From a virus (Duplodnaviria; Caudoviricetes): a stretch of DNA of 64,000 nt. The first letter of the stretch is position 1. The number at the start of each line of letters is the position of its first letter. Below the pieces are notes generated by a model. That model saw only the letters and a list, made by a program, of their open reading frames with translations. It had not been told where the DNA came from and did no database searches. The position numbers were made by a program, and so were the translations under genes. Positions 1,903-45,785 of the stretch are shown here, in pieces. The stretch is from IMG/VR virus record IMGVR_UViG_3300037461_001438, positions 1 through 64,000 of that record, one strand, 5' to 3'.

Positions 1903-2085
1903 TTATTTTTTCCTCTTCTTCGCCAACCTGCGAAGCGTCTTTCTTGCAGCTCACCGCTTGCGCGCAATCGACGAAAGCTTTGATTTCGGTTGAGAGCAGA
2001 ACTTGGCCACACTCATGCCGGAACGTTTGGCCTGAGAGGTCAAGGCGCCTTTTTTAAGTTTTCCGATCCATCCGTTTTTGGCCAT
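1903..2085 (-). CDS. Small basic protein with in-frame UGA (candidate selenoprotein)
   Basis: AAGGAG RBS, ATG 2085. MAKNGWIGKLKKGALTSQAKRSGMSVAKFCSQPKSKLSSIARKR(UGA 1951-1953)AARKTLRRLAKKRKK, then TAA 1 nt before the portal ATG. Confidence 0.65.
1918..1935 (-). promoter_or_regulatory. Bacterial SECIS-like hairpin
   Basis: CUUCGC-AGGUUG-GCGAAG; the stem starts 15 nt after the UGA. Confidence 0.55.
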
Positions 2086-6166: not shown

Positions 6167-6982
6167 ATGAAAATCAAAATCGACGAGCAGACAAAAACGG
6201 CAGTGCTGAAAGACGGACTTCCTGTCTACGTCTACGACGACGGAACAGAGGGCCCGTTCGACGCGAAAGCAACCCTCGAGAACCTAAACCGCCGGATCTC
6301 GAACCTCTCGGAAGAGAAGGATCGATTTTTCGGCAAGGCCAAGGATTACGAGGAAAAATTCAAGGCCTACGAGGGCATCGATCCGGCCAAGTACGGCGAA
6401 TACGAAAAGGTCGTCAAGAACCTGAACGACAAAGCGCTCCTCGACGAGAAGGGCATCGAAGCCCTGAAGAAGACAATGCGCGAGACGTTCGAAGAGGAGA
6501 AGAAAGCCGAGGCCAAGCGTTACGAGACGATGGTCAACGAACGCGAAACGCAGGTGCAGAGCCTGAACGGCCTCGTCTACGACCTGGTGATCAAAAACAA
6601 ATTCGCAACGTCGGATTTCTTCGCGGGCGACAAGCCCAAGACGATTTACCAGCCCGAAGACGCGGCCCTGATCTTCGGGCGGAACTTCGAGGTCCAGATC
6701 AAAGACAACAAGGTTGACCTTGTTGCCAAAGATGAAAAAGGCGCCGTGATCATGTCTAAGAAAAACCACGGCGAACCAGCGGACTTCGATGAAGCCATCA
6801 CAACGCTCGTTGAGGCGCGTGCCAAGAAGTACAGCATTTTGCGGAATCATTCACCGGGCGGCCCGCCGATCCATGGAAACCTGGACACCGGCGGGAAGTC
6901 CATTGACGAACTGACACCACAAGAACGAATCCGGGTGGGGTTGAATCAGCGTTTTAAAGGGCATTTCGGGGCACCCAAATAA
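6167..6982 (+). CDS. Capsid scaffolding protein
   Basis: AGGAGG RBS; charged coiled-coil protein; G..YVYDDG.E..FDA start; directly before the major capsid gene. Confidence 0.75.
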   Translation: MKIKIDEQTKTAVLKDGLPVYVYDDGTEGPFDAKATLENLNRRISNLSEEKDRFFGKAKDYEEKFKAYEGIDPAKYGEYEKVVKNLNDKALLDEKGIEALKKTMRETFEEEKKAEAKRYETMVNERETQVQSLNGLVYDLVIKNKFATSDFFAGDKPKTIYQPEDAALIFGRNFEVQIKDNKVDLVAKDEKGAVIMSKKNHGEPADFDEAITTLVEARAKKYSILRNHSPGGPPIHGNLDTGGKSIDELTPQERIRVGLNQRFKGHFGAPK

Positions 6983-14165: not shown

Positions 14166-14855
14166 ATGGGCCAATTTTCATCTGACTTTAGCTCTTCGGC
14201 GGGATGGACTTTAACCGGGTGCGAATTTACAGGTGGGGTATTTGTTTCCACCTCAAACTATTGTAGGGCCAGATACGACACCCCCTGCAACGGTTTAACT
14301 CAATATAGCAAAGCCAAATTTCCTTATACTGGAGGCAATGGCTCCGGGCCAGCCGTTAGGCTATCAAATGATGATCCACGCTATTATGCGCTCGAATCAG
14401 GGTGGGGTGGAATTTGGCTAACGCTTAACAGCGCCGTCGACGGATGGATAGCTGATATTGGGTTTGTAGATATAGACCTTACAAATGGCGATTCCGTTGC
14501 CATTACAATCGATGGAACCGGACAAAATTGCACCGTCAGAGTTTGGCATAATCCGACAAATGCTGTGCCACATGATGTTGCTAATTGGGATAGCGCGAAC
14601 GATCCTCCAGACGGAACGATAACCAATGTCGGCGCAACATGGGATTTGCAGGGTTATTACGTCGGCGTTGGAAGCCAACTATCCCAATCTAACACTTTGG
14701 ATGATTGGTCAGGCGGAGATGTTCCGACTGGTATCATCATGTCCTACCGCACCGGCGCCACGAAAGCCGCCTGCGAAGCGGCAAACTGGATCGAATACAC
14801 GGCGCCGTTTGAATCGTCAGGATTTGCCCAGGTGAAAGTGGAGGCACCCGAATAA
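14166..14855 (+). CDS. Beta-sandwich (lectin-like) putative virion protein
   Basis: AGGAGA RBS; G/S/T/N/W-rich; A+T-richer than the flanks except the last ~130 nt. Confidence 0.55.
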   Translation: MGQFSSDFSSSAGWTLTGCEFTGGVFVSTSNYCRARYDTPCNGLTQYSKAKFPYTGGNGSGPAVRLSNDDPRYYALESGWGGIWLTLNSAVDGWIADIGFVDIDLTNGDSVAITIDGTGQNCTVRVWHNPTNAVPHDVANWDSANDPPDGTITNVGATWDLQGYYVGVGSQLSQSNTLDDWSGGDVPTGIIMSYRTGATKAACEAANWIEYTAPFESSGFAQVKVEAPE

Positions 14856-40353: not shown

Positions 40354-40773
40354 ATGGACAATTCCAGTGCCGTGATATCCACATTGTGGCCGTATATCAT
40401 GACGGTTCTTGGCGGTATCCTGTCGATCATGGTCGCTGTTTTAATTAAGAAAATCGGCAACATAGACACTCTTACCGAAAAATTAAACAACCACCTTATC
40501 TCATTTGAAAAAACTCTTGCAGGCCTTGTCACCGACAATGACTGCCGGGCGGCCCGCGAAGCCTGCGTAAAGCTGAATAAAGCCCTTATCCAGGCCCCTC
40601 TCGAAAAAGCCATTTCAGAACACGAAGAAGAATCTGCCGAAAGAATCGATGGCATCGAAAAAGATGTCGAAGAGCTCTGGTTTGCCGTTCGTCACCACAT
40701 ACATTCCAAGGAGGGAGTAATCGTTGAAGATACCCCGAAACGCTATTCCCCTCCCGGCATGAGGACGTCATGA
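40354..40773 (+). CDS. Membrane protein (one TM plus coiled coil), lysis region
   Basis: Hydrophobic residues ~9-31, then helical. Confidence 0.6.
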   Translation: MDNSSAVISTLWPYIMTVLGGILSIMVAVLIKKIGNIDTLTEKLNNHLISFEKTLAGLVTDNDCRAAREACVKLNKALIQAPLEKAISEHEEESAERIDGIEKDVEELWFAVRHHIHSKEGVIVEDTPKRYSPPGMRTS

Positions 40774-41096
40774 AAAATCTTGCCCCTGGAATCAAGTCAA
40801 GCGAATTCATCGGCCTTGCCGCCTATCTCGTCTACATGATCCTCTCTGGCACCGGGCTGATCGAACCTGGTGGTCACGCCGACATCGTGAAAGGCTTCGA
40901 GAAAGCCCCCGATGCAATCGCCGCCGTAATCCAGCTTGTTCAAAACTTCGGCGAGCAAACCCTTGTGGGTGGACTCCTCTGGGCCTACATCAAACGCAGG
41001 TCGGCCCTCAAGAACAACCAGATAAAAGTAGATGTCATTCAGGCTCAGGCACAGCTTGAAAAATACCGTGCGCTCTATGTCCAGCAGCCTAAATGA
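40770..41096 (+). CDS. Possible holin
   Basis: GIKSSEF start, two hydrophobic segments, basic C-terminus. Confidence 0.45.
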   Translation: MKNLAPGIKSSEFIGLAAYLVYMILSGTGLIEPGGHADIVKGFEKAPDAIAAVIQLVQNFGEQTLVGGLLWAYIKRRSALKNNQIKVDVIQAQAQLEKYRALYVQQPK

Positions 41097-41282
41097 AAAA
41101 AAGATTTTTTGCACGCGTGTCATTCTCACCATTTGTGAGGCATACCCGCAGCGGACCCAGCACGAGTGCGCGCTTTATGAGCCCAACCTGAGAAGGACAC
41201 ATTGCCGCTTCTTTTTAAGAGAAGGGCCGGGGTTATGTTCACACCCGTCAATCCCTCAACTCTTCAATCTGAAGGCGCCGAT

Positions 41283-41807
41283 ATGATCTACCTCGATATC
41301 AAAGACGTTGAATCGATCAAGGAAGAAGACCTGCCGCTGCTTGTTTTGAGTTCCGATGCCAAAAGCTTCCTCGCCTGGGCGATCAGGCGGCGCACCAACT
41401 CCCATTACAGCCACCTCATGTGGCTCCACAGGCCCGGCTATTTCGCCTCGCAGGATCTCTGGTATCGCGAAGTGCCGATCATGAAATATGACGGTGTCCG
41501 ACTGAAGCTGTGGCGCGGCAAGAACTGGACGGCAACCGACAAGCTGAACATCACCGCCCGCATCAACCAGGAACTCGCCAAACCGGCGCTCGACACCCGC
41601 TACGACATGCTGGCCATCGTCGGACAGCTCTTCGGCCTTGTCAGCATCCAGGTGCCCTGGACAAAAATCTGCTCCGACTGGGCCGAGCTGCTCAAGATCG
41701 CCGACCCGTTCTACAACCTCAAGTGCCCCGATCCCGGCGACGTCAACCAATGGCTGAATGAAAGACAGGATCAGTATGAATGTTTTGCGCGCTATATTCC
41801 TGATTAG
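41283..41807 (+). CDS. Permuted papain-like amidase (YiiX/YebB-like)
   Basis: SHYSHLMW (His), RYDMLAI, ICSDW (Cys), P.DV. Confidence 0.7.
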   Translation: MIYLDIKDVESIKEEDLPLLVLSSDAKSFLAWAIRRRTNSHYSHLMWLHRPGYFASQDLWYREVPIMKYDGVRLKLWRGKNWTATDKLNITARINQELAKPALDTRYDMLAIVGQLFGLVSIQVPWTKICSDWAELLKIADPFYNLKCPDPGDVNQWLNERQDQYECFARYIPD

Positions 41808-41982
41808 CCTTCTTTGCGGCTGCTCAGTCGTCCAGACACCGCGGGAATACAATCTCTATTTGCACAACTGACAAGACGTTACCGTGCGCTTGGAGGTCCA
41901 GGCGGAACACAAAGACCAGATAAAGCAAGATACGTCTCCGACAACCGATGCGAACATCCCGCTGTCGATCGTGCCAAAATAA
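41776..41982 (+). CDS. Lipoprotein with in-frame UGA (candidate selenoprotein)
   Basis: AGGA RBS; MNVLRAIFLISLLCGC lipobox-like; ...YNLYLHN(UGA 41869-71)QDVTVRLEVQAEHKDQIKQDTSPTTDANIPLSIVPK, then TAA 11 nt before the endolysin ATG. Confidence 0.65.
41887..41904 (+). promoter_or_regulatory. Bacterial SECIS-like hairpin
   Basis: CGCUUGG-AGGU-CCAGGCG; the stem starts 15 nt after the UGA. Confidence 0.55.
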
Positions 41983-41993
41983 AGGGGGAAAGG

Positions 41994-42566
41994 ATGGCGA
42001 ACTTTGAACGAGCTTTTGCAAAAACATCCGCAATTGAAGGAGGCTATAGCGACAACCCTTCAGATCGTGGAGGGGAAACTTATCGCGGTATATCACGTCG
42101 ACGATGGCCCCTCTGGCCAGGATGGGAACGAATCGACCAAATCAAAAAAGAGCCGGGGTTCCCGCAGACGGCCCAGTACCTTCAGCTGGAAGAAGACGTA
42201 AGGAAGCTCTACAAAATGCACTTTTGGGACATGCTCCATGGCGACATGAACCCGGCGCAATCGGTTGCCGAAGTACTGTTTGATTTCGGCGTCAATGCCG
42301 GTGTGGCCACGGCCGTCCGGTACTTGCAGGAGTGCCTGAACGTCATGAACCGCATGGGCACCCGTTGGCCCGACATCAAAGTCGACGGCAAGATGGGGCC
42401 CGCTACAATGCAGGCCATCGCCGCCTGCTGCCTGCAAAAATACAAATATGAAGACGTCCTGATCAAGATGTTCAAAGGCCGAATGCTGAACCATTACTAT
42501 GCCATCATGGTCAACGATCAAAGCCAGGAGGAGTTTGCAATCGGATGGATTCGAAGAGCGTCGTAA
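41994..42566 (+). CDS. Endolysin, glycoside hydrolase family 108 with PG-binding domain
   Basis: EGGYSDNPSDRGGETYRGI, FDFGVNAG, VDGKMGP.T, F..GW..R. Confidence 0.92.
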   Translation: MANFERAFAKTSAIEGGYSDNPSDRGGETYRGISRRRWPLWPGWERIDQIKKEPGFPQTAQYLQLEEDVRKLYKMHFWDMLHGDMNPAQSVAEVLFDFGVNAGVATAVRYLQECLNVMNRMGTRWPDIKVDGKMGPATMQAIAACCLQKYKYEDVLIKMFKGRMLNHYYAIMVNDQSQEEFAIGWIRRAS

Positions 42567-42748
42567 CATGCCCAAGATGCAAGTCGCCCCTTGAGAGAAT
42601 GATGAACTCGAGGGACAAGTACAACTGCAAGAAATGCAGCGATGAGTCCGGGAAGTACATCATTTGGACAAATCAATTTCTTGAAGGCTTTAAAATGGGA
42701 GTGGAGCAAACCCGTGGCGATCTACTCGGTGTTCAGCGACCTTGCTGA
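42545..42748 (+). CDS. Small zinc-ribbon protein
   Basis: CPRC...CKKC. Confidence 0.5.
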   Translation: MDSKSVVTCPRCKSPLERMMNSRDKYNCKKCSDESGKYIIWTNQFLEGFKMGVEQTRGDLLGVQRPC

Positions 42749-43145
42749 AAGCAAAAGTATCATCTACCCGTACATGCTGATCTATGACTCGCTGCACCCC
42801 GAGCTGCAGCGGCTCATCGACGCCGTCTCGCAACACTTCGACATTGTCCTTATCGAAGGCCACCGCAGCGAGGAACGCCAAAACTCCATGCGCAAGGCCC
42901 GCAGGGCGAGGAGGCTTTTCCCGAAGAGCAAGCACAACCGGATGCCGTCCGAGGCCGTCGACCTGATGCCTTATCCGCTGAACTACAGAAACATCGCCCA
43001 GGTCGCCTTCCTTGCAGGGCACATAAGAATGACAGCTATCGCCCTCGGAATAAAAATCAAGTGGGACGCCGACCCGTACAACCAGAACTTGATCAGCGAA
43101 AAAATAAAACCATACCGCAGGATCCACCACTACGAGCTTGTATGA
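42714..43145 (+). CDS. M15-family peptidase (L-Ala-D-Glu endopeptidase-like)
   Basis: LHPELQ, EGHRSEERQ, SKHN....AVDL.PYP, HYEL. Confidence 0.75.
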   Translation: MAIYSVFSDLAESKSIIYPYMLIYDSLHPELQRLIDAVSQHFDIVLIEGHRSEERQNSMRKARRARRLFPKSKHNRMPSEAVDLMPYPLNYRNIAQVAFLAGHIRMTAIALGIKIKWDADPYNQNLISEKIKPYRRIHHYELV

Positions 43146-43749: not shown

Positions 43750-44229
43750 ATGAAGGAAAAACTTATCATCATCGTCGTTGCGATCTTTATTCTTTTTGGG
43801 TGCGCCGGACTCGAGCCGTCGAAGTCGGTCTGCAACGAGGCGCGGCCGGCGCAATTCGTCGGCATGGAAAGTCATATCTGCGCCACCGCGGCCATGGCCG
43901 GAATGGTACCCGAAGACATCGACGGTCTTCTTCTCGATGCGACGGCAATGGCCTTCGTGACTGATGCTGTCAAAATCAAGGACATCGAGGTCTTCCTCAA
44001 CAAGGCGCGCAAGTTCCTGAAGCCGGATCAGCAATGCGCCGGGGTAAGCTTCAATGCCTTTATCGATTTTATCGACCTTGAGGCCGAGAAGGCCATCGTT
44101 CTCAAAAGCGTGATCAACCGCCGGGTCTACGCCTTCCGGTCGCTTAAGACGATCAACGCGTTTGATTGCTGGATGCTCGAGCAAAGCATGCTGCACCAGG
44201 CCGAGCAGTTTGGTTTGAAGGTGATGTGA
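43750..44229 (+). CDS. Lipoprotein
   Basis: GGAGG RBS; MKEKLIIIVVAIFILFGC lipobox. Confidence 0.7.
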   Translation: MKEKLIIIVVAIFILFGCAGLEPSKSVCNEARPAQFVGMESHICATAAMAGMVPEDIDGLLLDATAMAFVTDAVKIKDIEVFLNKARKFLKPDQQCAGVSFNAFIDFIDLEAEKAIVLKSVINRRVYAFRSLKTINAFDCWMLEQSMLHQAEQFGLKVM

Positions 44230-44417: not shown

Positions 44418-44476
44418 ACCGCCGCCAGCACCCGCCGCCACCCATGACCATTGAAATTGTAACTATTTGATTTTAT

Positions 44477-44526
44477 TGGTCGGGGCGGTCAGATTTGAAC
44501 TGACGGCCCCCTGCTCCCAAAGCAGG
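44477..44526 (-). other. attP core: 3' half of tRNA-Pro(TGG)
   Basis: CCTGC-TTTGGGA-GCAGG anticodon arm, GTCAG-TTCAAAT-CTGAC T arm, CGCCCCG-A-CCA; no D arm or 5' half; 19 nt from the integrase stop. Confidence 0.9.
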
Positions 44527-44545: not shown

Positions 44546-45646
44546 TTATTTCCCAAGCTTTTCAGGCTTCCTCTTTCCGCCTGGACCCGCCGCCAAGGGC
44601 TTTTTTGGCCCAAATCCGCCGCCAGCAGCCGCCGCCAGATCGAAAACCCCCTCGAGAGCCTGGGAGGCTGCCGCAGCACCCCCTGTAAGGCCCCTCAGAT
44701 AGATCTCCGTCGTCCCCAGGCTCTTGTGGCCCAGCATGTCGCCGATCGACTTCCTGTCGACCTGGCAGGGGCCGGCAAGTGTGGATGCCACACAGTGCCG
44801 CAAGGCGTGGAAGGTGAAAGTCCGCGCAAGGCCGGCTTTCCTGCAAAGACTCTTGATCATCTTGAAGCGCCGGTTGTACTTGCGCCCGGTCTTTGGGTTC
44901 GGGAAGACGAGCTCACTGTCACACCCGCGGTGCGCATGGCACCACTTGAGCACCCGCTCGAGGCCGCCTGTGATCTTCGTTGTGATCGGGGCGAGGCTTC
45001 CGCCCTTTCTCTTCCTGGTGTAGCGGGTCACCGTCATCTGCACGAAATCGACATCCTGCCAGGTGAGCCGCTGGATCTCGTCGACGCGGGCGCCCGTATA
45101 AAGCACCGCCAAAAGAAAGGCCCGCTGCCGCTCGCTTGCCACCTGCAGAAGCTTCAGGACATCCTCGATCGTTGGCACATACTTCTGCGCTGGCGCGTGT
45201 GGGAGTCTCGCCACCTGTGAAACCGGGTTCTCCTCTATCAATTTCAAATTATTCTTTATGTAAGAAAATACAGACGATAGGTCTTTGCGGTGGGCATTGA
45301 AGTTGTTGTTGGTTGGCCGGCCGAGCAGGTAGATCGTGATCTCGTGCGCCGTGTACTGATTGCACGGGCGGTTGCCGAGAACCCGGAGGAACTCTTTTAC
45401 GACGAAAACTTTCTGTTTGTAAGTCTTGGCGACGAAGCGGGCGCGGGCTTCGTTCAGGTAGGCGGCGGCCGCGTACCTAAATTCCGTGGACGGACGGATC
45501 AACTGCCGGGAGAGCTTCTTTTTGTGCTCCTCCCTTGCGGCGAGCGCGGCCGCCTTGGTCCTGAACCCCCGCCCCGTGTAGGCCCGGCTGCCGCGCTCGA
45601 ACTTGTAGCACCAATGCTTGCGCTGCTTGTCCTTCCACAAGCCCAT
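44546..45646 (-). CDS. int: Tyrosine integrase
   Basis: YTGARVDEI (R), KRK, FHALRH (HxxR), LGHKS..TT.IY (H, Y). Confidence 0.95.
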   Translation of the reverse strand: MGLWKDKQRKHWCYKFERGSRAYTGRGFRTKAAALAAREEHKKKLSRQLIRPSTEFRYAAAAYLNEARARFVAKTYKQKVFVVKEFLRVLGNRPCNQYTAHEITIYLLGRPTNNNFNAHRKDLSSVFSYIKNNLKLIEENPVSQVARLPHAPAQKYVPTIEDVLKLLQVASERQRAFLLAVLYTGARVDEIQRLTWQDVDFVQMTVTRYTRKRKGGSLAPITTKITGGLERVLKWCHAHRGCDSELVFPNPKTGRKYNRRFKMIKSLCRKAGLARTFTFHALRHCVASTLAGPCQVDRKSIGDMLGHKSLGTTEIYLRGLTGGAAAASQALEGVFDLAAAAGGGFGPKKPLAAGPGGKRKPEKLGK

Positions 45647-45785
45647 CGATCGTATCGCTCCTGAAGCGTAGCACCTTGATCCCCGCCGGGTAAAACCCGC
45701 CCAGTCGGCGCTGGTGCTCATATACCGAACTTAACGATATTTTTAAGAGGGATGCAACCTCGGCTGGCGTCAGAAGCTCTTTCAT
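45477..45785 (-). CDS. xis: Excisionase-like HTH protein overlapping int
   Basis: MKELLTPAEVASLLKIS.SSVY; overlaps the int 5' end. Confidence 0.75.
   Translation of the reverse strand: MKELLTPAEVASLLKISLSSVYEHQRRLGGFYPAGIKVLRFRSDTIDGLVEGQAAQALVLQVRARQPGLHGAGVQDQGGRARRKGGAQKEALPAVDPSVHGI

Follow-up and report, generated by a model that had tools for sequence, protein, structure and literature searches.

Bacteriophage Qbeta extends its coat protein to the A1 protein by readthrough of a UGA codon. Selenocysteine (Sec), the other known outcome of UGA translation considered here, is to our knowledge known almost only from cellular redox enzymes. Among two-component spanins, 507 of the 528 known examples carry at least one periplasmic Cys residue, and a Cys in one subunit can make a Cys in the other unnecessary (PMC6139136). 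In the case of lambda Rz1, a single periplasmic Cys forms a homotypic intermolecular disulfide, and helical structure was neither predicted nor detected (PMC6139136). For bacterial selenoproteins, the pairing of UGA and Cys at one alignment column represents the standard signature that is independent of the SECIS element, and a 2026 inventory of the prokaryotic members makes no mention of phages, viruses, lipoproteins or diselenides (PMC13188914). Our full-text literature searches returned no paper on a phage selenoprotein, a Sec-containing spanin or a Sec-containing phage lysis protein.

The gene described here shares features with each of these systems. It lies in a stretch of 64,000 nucleotides (hereafter the window), which makes up the initial 64 kb of an IMG/VR phage record of 90,476 bp; this record is rated as complete by CheckV, encodes a tyrosine integrase and phage replication helicases, and comes without host flank. 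We propose that the open reading frame at 41776-41982 probably encodes a Sec-containing outer-membrane lipoprotein, probably an o-spanin, in which Sec takes the place of a disulfide-forming Cys. Most likely, it stands for a new phage-carried selenoprotein family whose members are outer-membrane lipoproteins of the lysis machinery. The features on which the analysis is based are the following, all on the plus strand:

40354-40773 (+), candidate i-spanin with an N-terminal membrane helix (residues ~7-37), a helical periplasmic part and two Cys residues (hydropathy scan, sequence reading)
40770-41096 (+), holin-like small membrane protein whose gene overlaps the preceding one by 4 nt (hydropathy scan, sequence)
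41235-41807 (+), protein of 177-190 residues with invariant His, Cys and Asp (homologues, alignment A1)
41776-41982 (+), putatively recoded open reading frame for a 68-residue prolipoprotein, provided that the TGA is decoded (translation; same layout in loci L008, L027, L028 and L029; alignment A7)
41776-41823 (+), predicted signal peptide with lipobox L-C-G-C (read from the sequence; counterpart in every homologue)
41869-41871 (+), in-frame TGA, proposed selenocysteine codon 32 (same aligned codon in all five loci with DNA)
41872-41979 (+), 36 sense codons 3' of the TGA (protein-level conservation), followed by TAA at 41980-41982
41884-41910 (+), SECIS-like hairpin (individual folds, consensus fold, constraints of the bSECIS model)
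41994-42566 (+), GH108 endolysin with a peptidoglycan-binding domain (Pfam PF05838 and PF09374; PHROG 315, endolysin)

The small gene starts with an ATG at 41776, which follows an AGGA motif at a spacing of 5 nt and lies within a 32-nt overlap with the upstream gene at 41235-41807. Its TAA is separated by 11 nt from the start of the endolysin gene, whose product matches the Pfam families Glyco_hydro_108 and PG_binding_3 at 2e-20 and 2e-13, respectively. A basic N-terminus and a hydrophobic core precede the lipobox, with codon 16 (41821-41823) specifying the Cys residue predicted to be lipidated. The pattern L-[ASGVCT]-G-C occupies this place in every homologue, and a lipobox with Ser or Thr at position +2 can be read in all 11 full-length members. 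In E. coli, a Ser residue at this position leads to outer-membrane sorting, and Ser is also the +2 residue of the window lipoprotein. Fifteen residues lie between the predicted lipidated Cys and the TGA. If the TGA is decoded, the mature protein comprises 52-53 residues, compared with ~50 for the mature chains of the family, and the residue at the TGA is its only Cys-type residue apart from the lipidated one. A sequence-only reading of this DNA had claimed as much, and its account of the gene, with a lipobox, Cys16, UGA at codon 32, 36 further codons to a TAA and then a GH108 endolysin, proved accurate throughout. The GC content at third codon positions is 0.61 before and 0.67 after the TGA and resembles that of the neighbouring genes. 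An AlphaFold2 monomer model contains the signal helix and no other fold (pLDDT 69.6).

Relatives of the gene were obtained by two routes. Using the family of the upstream gene (41235-41807) as bait for metagenome loci, we recovered L008, whose homologue of the small gene has its TGA at the equivalent codon and is identical at 67% of the residues that follow; over the codons downstream of the TGA, the window and L008 differ by a pS of 0.61, a pN of 0.21 and an in-frame 6-nt indel. A degenerate DNA pattern applied to IMG/VR then yielded L027, L028 and L029, and every one of the five loci for which DNA is at hand has its TGA at this aligned codon. These three loci come from records of 17.8 kb, 38 kb (bearing terminal repeats) and 43.6 kb, as compared to 90 kb for that of the window, and since the same gene is thus found in phage records of differing size, it travels among different phages. 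In L029, the gene itself ends with a TGA (6356-6358, minus strand), which would place one recoded and one terminating UGA in the same mRNA. Scans of IMG/VR that used the upstream protein, the endolysin, a two-sequence alignment or three DNA patterns as query yielded no loci; the recoded protein found no match in a word index, and the GenBank phages returned nothing by DNA and only chance matches in Porphyromonas phage tail genes by protein. Two candidates were discarded, namely the lipoprotein of locus L009, which is not a homologue of the small lipoprotein, and P0015, a 5820-residue Ser/Thr-rich protein that represents a false match by composition.

At the protein level, we searched 1.84 billion proteins with a profile and a word index with a wider alignment, which uncovered six uninterrupted homologues of 66-75 residues that span the TGA column. 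The same searches produced at least eight N-terminal database pieces of 30-35 residues, each stopping exactly before this column, and seven C-terminal pieces of 31-35 residues, each starting a few codons past it. Because the two kinds of fragments flank one and the same codon, the interrupted form is common rather than the product of error, and the stop has been retained at this exact codon in at least ten lineages. Protein conservation continues in the same frame beyond the UGA, and this finding, together with the uninterrupted homologues that bridge the site, bears out the earlier claim that the region downstream of the UGA is coding. Judged from these comparisons, the small lipoprotein gene is real, conserved and recoded.

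The identity of the residue that aligns with the TGA provides a second line of evidence. TGA occupies this column of alignment A7 in five sequences; among the uninterrupted homologues, P0016 and P0019 have Cys there, P0017 and P0027 Ser, P0022 Glu and P0031 Ile. Two of the six uninterrupted homologues thus have Cys at this place and four do not, and in the two former proteins the aligned Cys is the sole non-lipidated one. The expectation of the sequence-only reading that homologues would show Cys or Sec at residue 32 is borne out by the TGA in all five loci and the Cys in P0016 and P0019, although the Ser, Ser, Glu and Ile of the remaining four show that Cys/Sec is not universal in the family. 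The existence of these latter forms indicates that the residue at the TGA column is not indispensable to the family. They nevertheless fit the pattern seen in spanins, given that a Cys in one subunit can spare that of the other.

Downstream of the UGA, the RNA folds into a SECIS-like hairpin, CGCUUGG-AGGU-CCAGGCG, whose pairing, including its possible extension with GUG/CAC across a GAA bulge, was as first described from the sequence. The 7-bp upper stem (41887-41893 / 41898-41904) is capped by the AGGU loop (41894-41897), and the GUG/CAC lower stem pairs 41884-41886 with 41908-41910, giving an energy of -12.4 kcal/mol for the complete structure (centroid) and of -9.8 kcal/mol for the upper hairpin alone. 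The hairpin begins 12-15 nt past the codon, and the spacing from the UGA to the AGGU loop is 22 nt. A stem of 6-7 bp with an AGGU loop, again 22 nt past the UGA, is found in four of the five loci; in the fifth, L008, six bases differ, and the hairpin forms in another register, its 8-nt loop retaining G-U at the same two positions. The bSECIS model specifies a loop of 3-9 nt with a G among the first two positions, a stem of 4-16 bp, a distance of 16-37 nt from the UGA and a minimum free energy of -7.5 kcal/mol or lower (PMC13188914). All four constraints are satisfied by the hairpin of the window and likewise by those of L027, L028 and L029, whereas L008 complies only with an extended fold.

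In itself, the hairpin is only moderately unusual. Compared with shuffles of the 65-nt stretch, the stability of the window hairpin corresponds to a z-score of -0.81. When random positions or TGA triplets of the window are considered, 4% are followed by a hairpin that fits the bSECIS model, hairpins as stable as the observed one follow ~1.3% of random window positions, and 4.3% of the synonymous recodings of the same peptide give an equally good structure. The hairpin alone is thus weak evidence, so that the weight of the case comes from the comparison with other sequences, and what raises the finding above chance is the recurrence of the same TGA, frame and hairpin place in four other loci, combined with the Cys in two homologues. 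RNAalifold recovered the common hairpin across the loci, with compensatory changes in 0 of 13 pairs, and the structure is conserved mostly by sequence identity. For the two Val codons within the hairpin, the third position is invariant in all five loci, whereas the Val two codons upstream is specified by four codons. Moreover, the peptide encoded by the hairpin is near-invariant in the UGA forms and the C-terminal fragments but different in the Cys and Ser forms, a pattern that is expected from a double constraint at the levels of RNA and protein. An Rfam search of 41700-42050 with E-values up to 10 returned no SECIS family, only two chance-level matches on the opposite strand (E 8.4). Two other roles for this element were considered and rejected: the GGAGGU in the loop is not followed by a start codon and is absent in L008, which speaks against a ribosome-binding site, and no U-tract follows the hairpin, as would be the case for a terminator.

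How else could these observations be explained? The main rival, although unlikely, is that the gene makes use of programmed UGA readthrough without selenium, with a near-cognate tRNA (Trp or Cys) accepted at low frequency, perhaps with help from the hairpin. The main product would then be a 15-residue lipopeptide, with the full-length lipoprotein as a minor species, comparable to the A1 protein of Qbeta. UGA-C is the leakiest stop context in E. coli, and the stop of the small gene is always UGA, with C as the next base in four loci and G in the fifth. Both the conservation of the frame past the stop and the fact that no Sec machinery is tied to the phages, as judged from the four records examined, are compatible with such a process. 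The alignment column cuts both ways, since Cys is not obligatory among the homologues, in which Ser, Glu and Ile also occur, but insertion of Trp would leave the sole free Cys in two of them unexplained. The same is true of the hairpin: it lacks covariation, yet its distance of 12-15 nt represents SECIS-like spacing and exceeds that of structures acting at the mRNA entrance, which usually lie 5-8 nt from the codon, and its loop contains the G-G-U typical of loops bound by SelB.

Less probable still, and in our view doubtful on several grounds, is the notion that the UGA is a true stop, leaving either a 15-residue mature lipoprotein and a separate product initiated at the GTG at 41884, or a decaying remnant of a gene. 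Although this GTG is kept in all five loci, it is not preceded by a Shine-Dalgarno sequence. In many contigs, gene callers treated the two halves as separate genes, but the downstream half has no signal peptide of its own, and the uninterrupted homologues are predicted to be exported as one chain. Across divergent phages, the sequence remains under purifying selection and its indels stay in frame, which would not be expected of a decaying gene, and it would be difficult to reconcile either version with a stop kept at this very codon in at least ten lineages. A general reassignment of TGA, whether through a host that uses code table 4 or 25 or through a suppressor tRNA with which the phage recodes its late genes, has a precedent in the stop-codon recoding known from late genes of some uncultured phages but is highly improbable here, because TGA is the commonest terminator of long open reading frames in the window (36 of 77), is absent from the interior of a 2199-residue tail-fibre frame and terminates the L029 copy of the lipoprotein gene itself, and because the only tRNAs found are a tRNA-Ile and a doubtful tRNA-Arg, neither of them a suppressor.

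Thus, TGA serves as an ordinary stop in this phage, and the standard code applies elsewhere in its genes. The four phage records examined contain no suppressor tRNA, tRNA-Sec, selA, selB or selD; the decoding, of whatever kind, is specific to this site and relies on host factors. As for the host, portal and capsid proteins show 24-42% identity to those of phages of Proteobacteria, and the sequence evidence supports a Gram-negative bacterium, with no finer assignment. The nearest ESM Atlas clusters of the integrase come from Myxococcota, Thermodesulfobacteriota and Pseudomonadota, which offers a weak lead, and a genome-collection scan gave only a distant Saccharibacteria match that was of no help in placing the host. 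A partial tRNA-Pro(UGG) gene (~44470-44525, minus strand) adjoins the integrase gene (44546-45721, minus strand); it retains the 3' part, with the anticodon arm, the T arm and the acceptor end with its CCA, and lacks the 5' half. This remnant is a probable attP core and, as such, a handle on the attB site of the host. An attP site in selC was considered and rejected, as the tRNA fragment beside the integrase is that of tRNA-Pro(UGG). The tRNA-Arg(gcg) called by ARAGORN (14738-14830, plus strand, 93 nt) lies inside an open reading frame (14166-14855), is unseen by Rfam and probably constitutes a false positive.

The reading of the small protein as a Sec-containing lipoprotein gains its functional context from the surrounding genes. 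In all five loci, an endolysin and holin-like small membrane proteins are encoded near the lipoprotein gene, placing it in a lysis cassette, with endolysins of the GH108 type confined to the window and L008. All five loci also have a nearby open reading frame for a protein in which an N-terminal membrane helix is joined to a long, helical periplasmic part or coiled coil. In L008, the end of the frame encoding the membrane helix and coiled coil overlaps the start of the lipoprotein gene by 4 nt, an arrangement shown by spanin pairs of the separated or overlapped type. The corresponding frame of the window and L027-L029 is located 0.85-1.4 kb upstream of the lipoprotein gene, with other genes in between. 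The window protein encoded at 40354-40773 would be an i-spanin as judged by its architecture only; neither it nor the product of 40770-41096 has a family match, and the candidate i-spanins of the different loci show no homology to each other by BLASTP. For the small lipoprotein itself, there was no significant match to a PHROG or Pfam spanin or to a known selenoprotein family; weak matches to an "Rz-like spanin" (E 0.05-0.4) were probably caused by the signal peptide. The protein most likely works like an o-spanin, as suggested by context only, and we do not file it in a known spanin family. The description as spanin-like given by the sequence-only reading is therefore upheld by the place in the lysis cassette, the 4-nt overlap in L008 and the candidate partner at 40354-40773, but not by similarity to known spanin families.

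Several further genes of the cassette deserve mention. The family of the gene at 41235-41807 has no Pfam match; it adjoins GH108 endolysins in the window, L006 and L008 and structural genes in distant phages. Its members are possibly peptidases of the cysteine type or amidases that serve as a second lytic enzyme. Directly after the GH108 endolysin follow a zinc-ribbon mini-protein (42545-42748, plus strand) and an endolysin-like protein (42642-43145, plus strand; PHROG 465, E 9e-14). With these endolysin-like neighbours, the cassette holds up to three candidates for wall-degrading enzymes. A larger lipoprotein of ~150-166 residues, in which a Cys closely follows the lipobox, is encoded at 43750-44229 (plus strand) and shows a weak Cor-like match (E 0.007); a comparable larger lipoprotein is found upstream of the small one in L027 and L028. 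The latter two loci additionally encode endolysin-like proteins of 236-239 residues, which are 80% mutually identical and located 0.5 kb downstream of the small lipoprotein. Their N-terminal sequences resemble signal-anchors or lipoboxes, which suggests exported or membrane-tethered endolysins.

Collectively, these observations lead us to propose the following mechanism. One gene of the lysis cassette would give rise to a small outer-membrane lipoprotein anchored by Cys16. During its translation, the UGA at codon 32 would be read as selenocysteine by the SelB/tRNA-Sec machinery of the host, with insertion directed by the hairpin and its G-G-U-containing apical loop. The resulting mature lipoprotein of ~52 residues, with Sec as its only other thiol-type residue, would then most likely serve as the outer-membrane subunit in a spanin of the two-component type. 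Since Sec would stand in place of the single periplasmic Cys of lambda Rz1, the chains could be joined by a diselenide or selenylsulfide bond. In L008, the partner frame lacks Cys, so that Sec would be the only residue able to form a covalent link. A homodimer prediction on the natural Cys homologues yielded a score of 0.02, a value that counts neither way on binding. It is tempting to speculate, if only tentatively, that a spanin cross-linked by an intermolecular diselenide (or selenylsulfide) allows disruption of the outer membrane to work in the reducing periplasm of anaerobes without Dsb-type oxidation, tying the end of lysis to the selenium and Sec supply of the host.

If the proposal is correct, a late gene of a phage would need host SelB, tRNA-Sec and selenium, a new type of host dependence and a possible marker of host range. 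Sec would moreover act as a structural cross-link in a membrane-fusion machine instead of a catalytic residue, and this structural, non-catalytic Sec would be encoded by a virus of bacteria. Searches for spanins and gene callers for phages would systematically miss or split such genes, as has happened in the databases used here. At the same time, ~200 nt of sequence would provide a natural test case for SECIS function and for disulfide versus diselenide chemistry in the periplasm. Elsewhere in the window, a small, basic open reading frame just upstream of the portal gene (1903-2085, minus strand) also contains an in-frame TGA (1953-1951), followed 18 nt further on by a 6-bp hairpin with a 6-nt loop that starts with AGGU, as in the lipoprotein gene. 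This TGA could be a second Sec site with the same motif for host SelB, or a real stop.

Among the systems described to date, o-spanins such as lambda Rz1 and T4 PseT.2 resemble the small protein in having a lipobox and a very short mature chain without predicted fold, as well as a place in the cassette next to endolysin and holin-like genes, where, in L008, the start of the gene overlaps the end of the one for a coiled-coil protein. Like Rz1, with its Cys29, the window lipoprotein has a single periplasmic thiol-type residue (PMC6139136). It differs from Rz1 by the absence of a proline-rich stretch and the specification of this residue by UGA, and from o-spanins in general by a candidate i-spanin that is positioned 1 kb upstream rather than adjacent and by the lack of a spanin match in PHROG or Pfam. 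Like the coat gene of Qbeta, the lipoprotein gene belongs to a phage, is interrupted by a UGA and continues in the same frame with conserved sequence, but it is set apart by Cys homologues, a SECIS-type hairpin and a short product that would have only 15 residues.

With the selenoprotein genes of bacteria, the gene has in common the presence of Cys at the UGA column of homologues. In contrast to them, it resides on a phage without Sec machinery of its own, some homologues have a residue other than Cys at this column, and the product is a tiny, putatively exported lipoprotein with neither a thioredoxin-like or enzyme fold nor a redox motif of the CxxU type. The prototype of such genes is E. coli fdhF with its codon 140, where an in-frame UGA is likewise followed by C and by a hairpin that lies within the coding sequence at a fixed distance. 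When read in the same manner as a control, fdhF showed UGA-C and, 18 nt further on, the loop GGUC preceded by A. The spacing in the lipoprotein gene is 22 nt instead of 18 nt, and its upper stem has no bulged U; the pentamer A-G-G-U-C in the apical region, however, is common to both.
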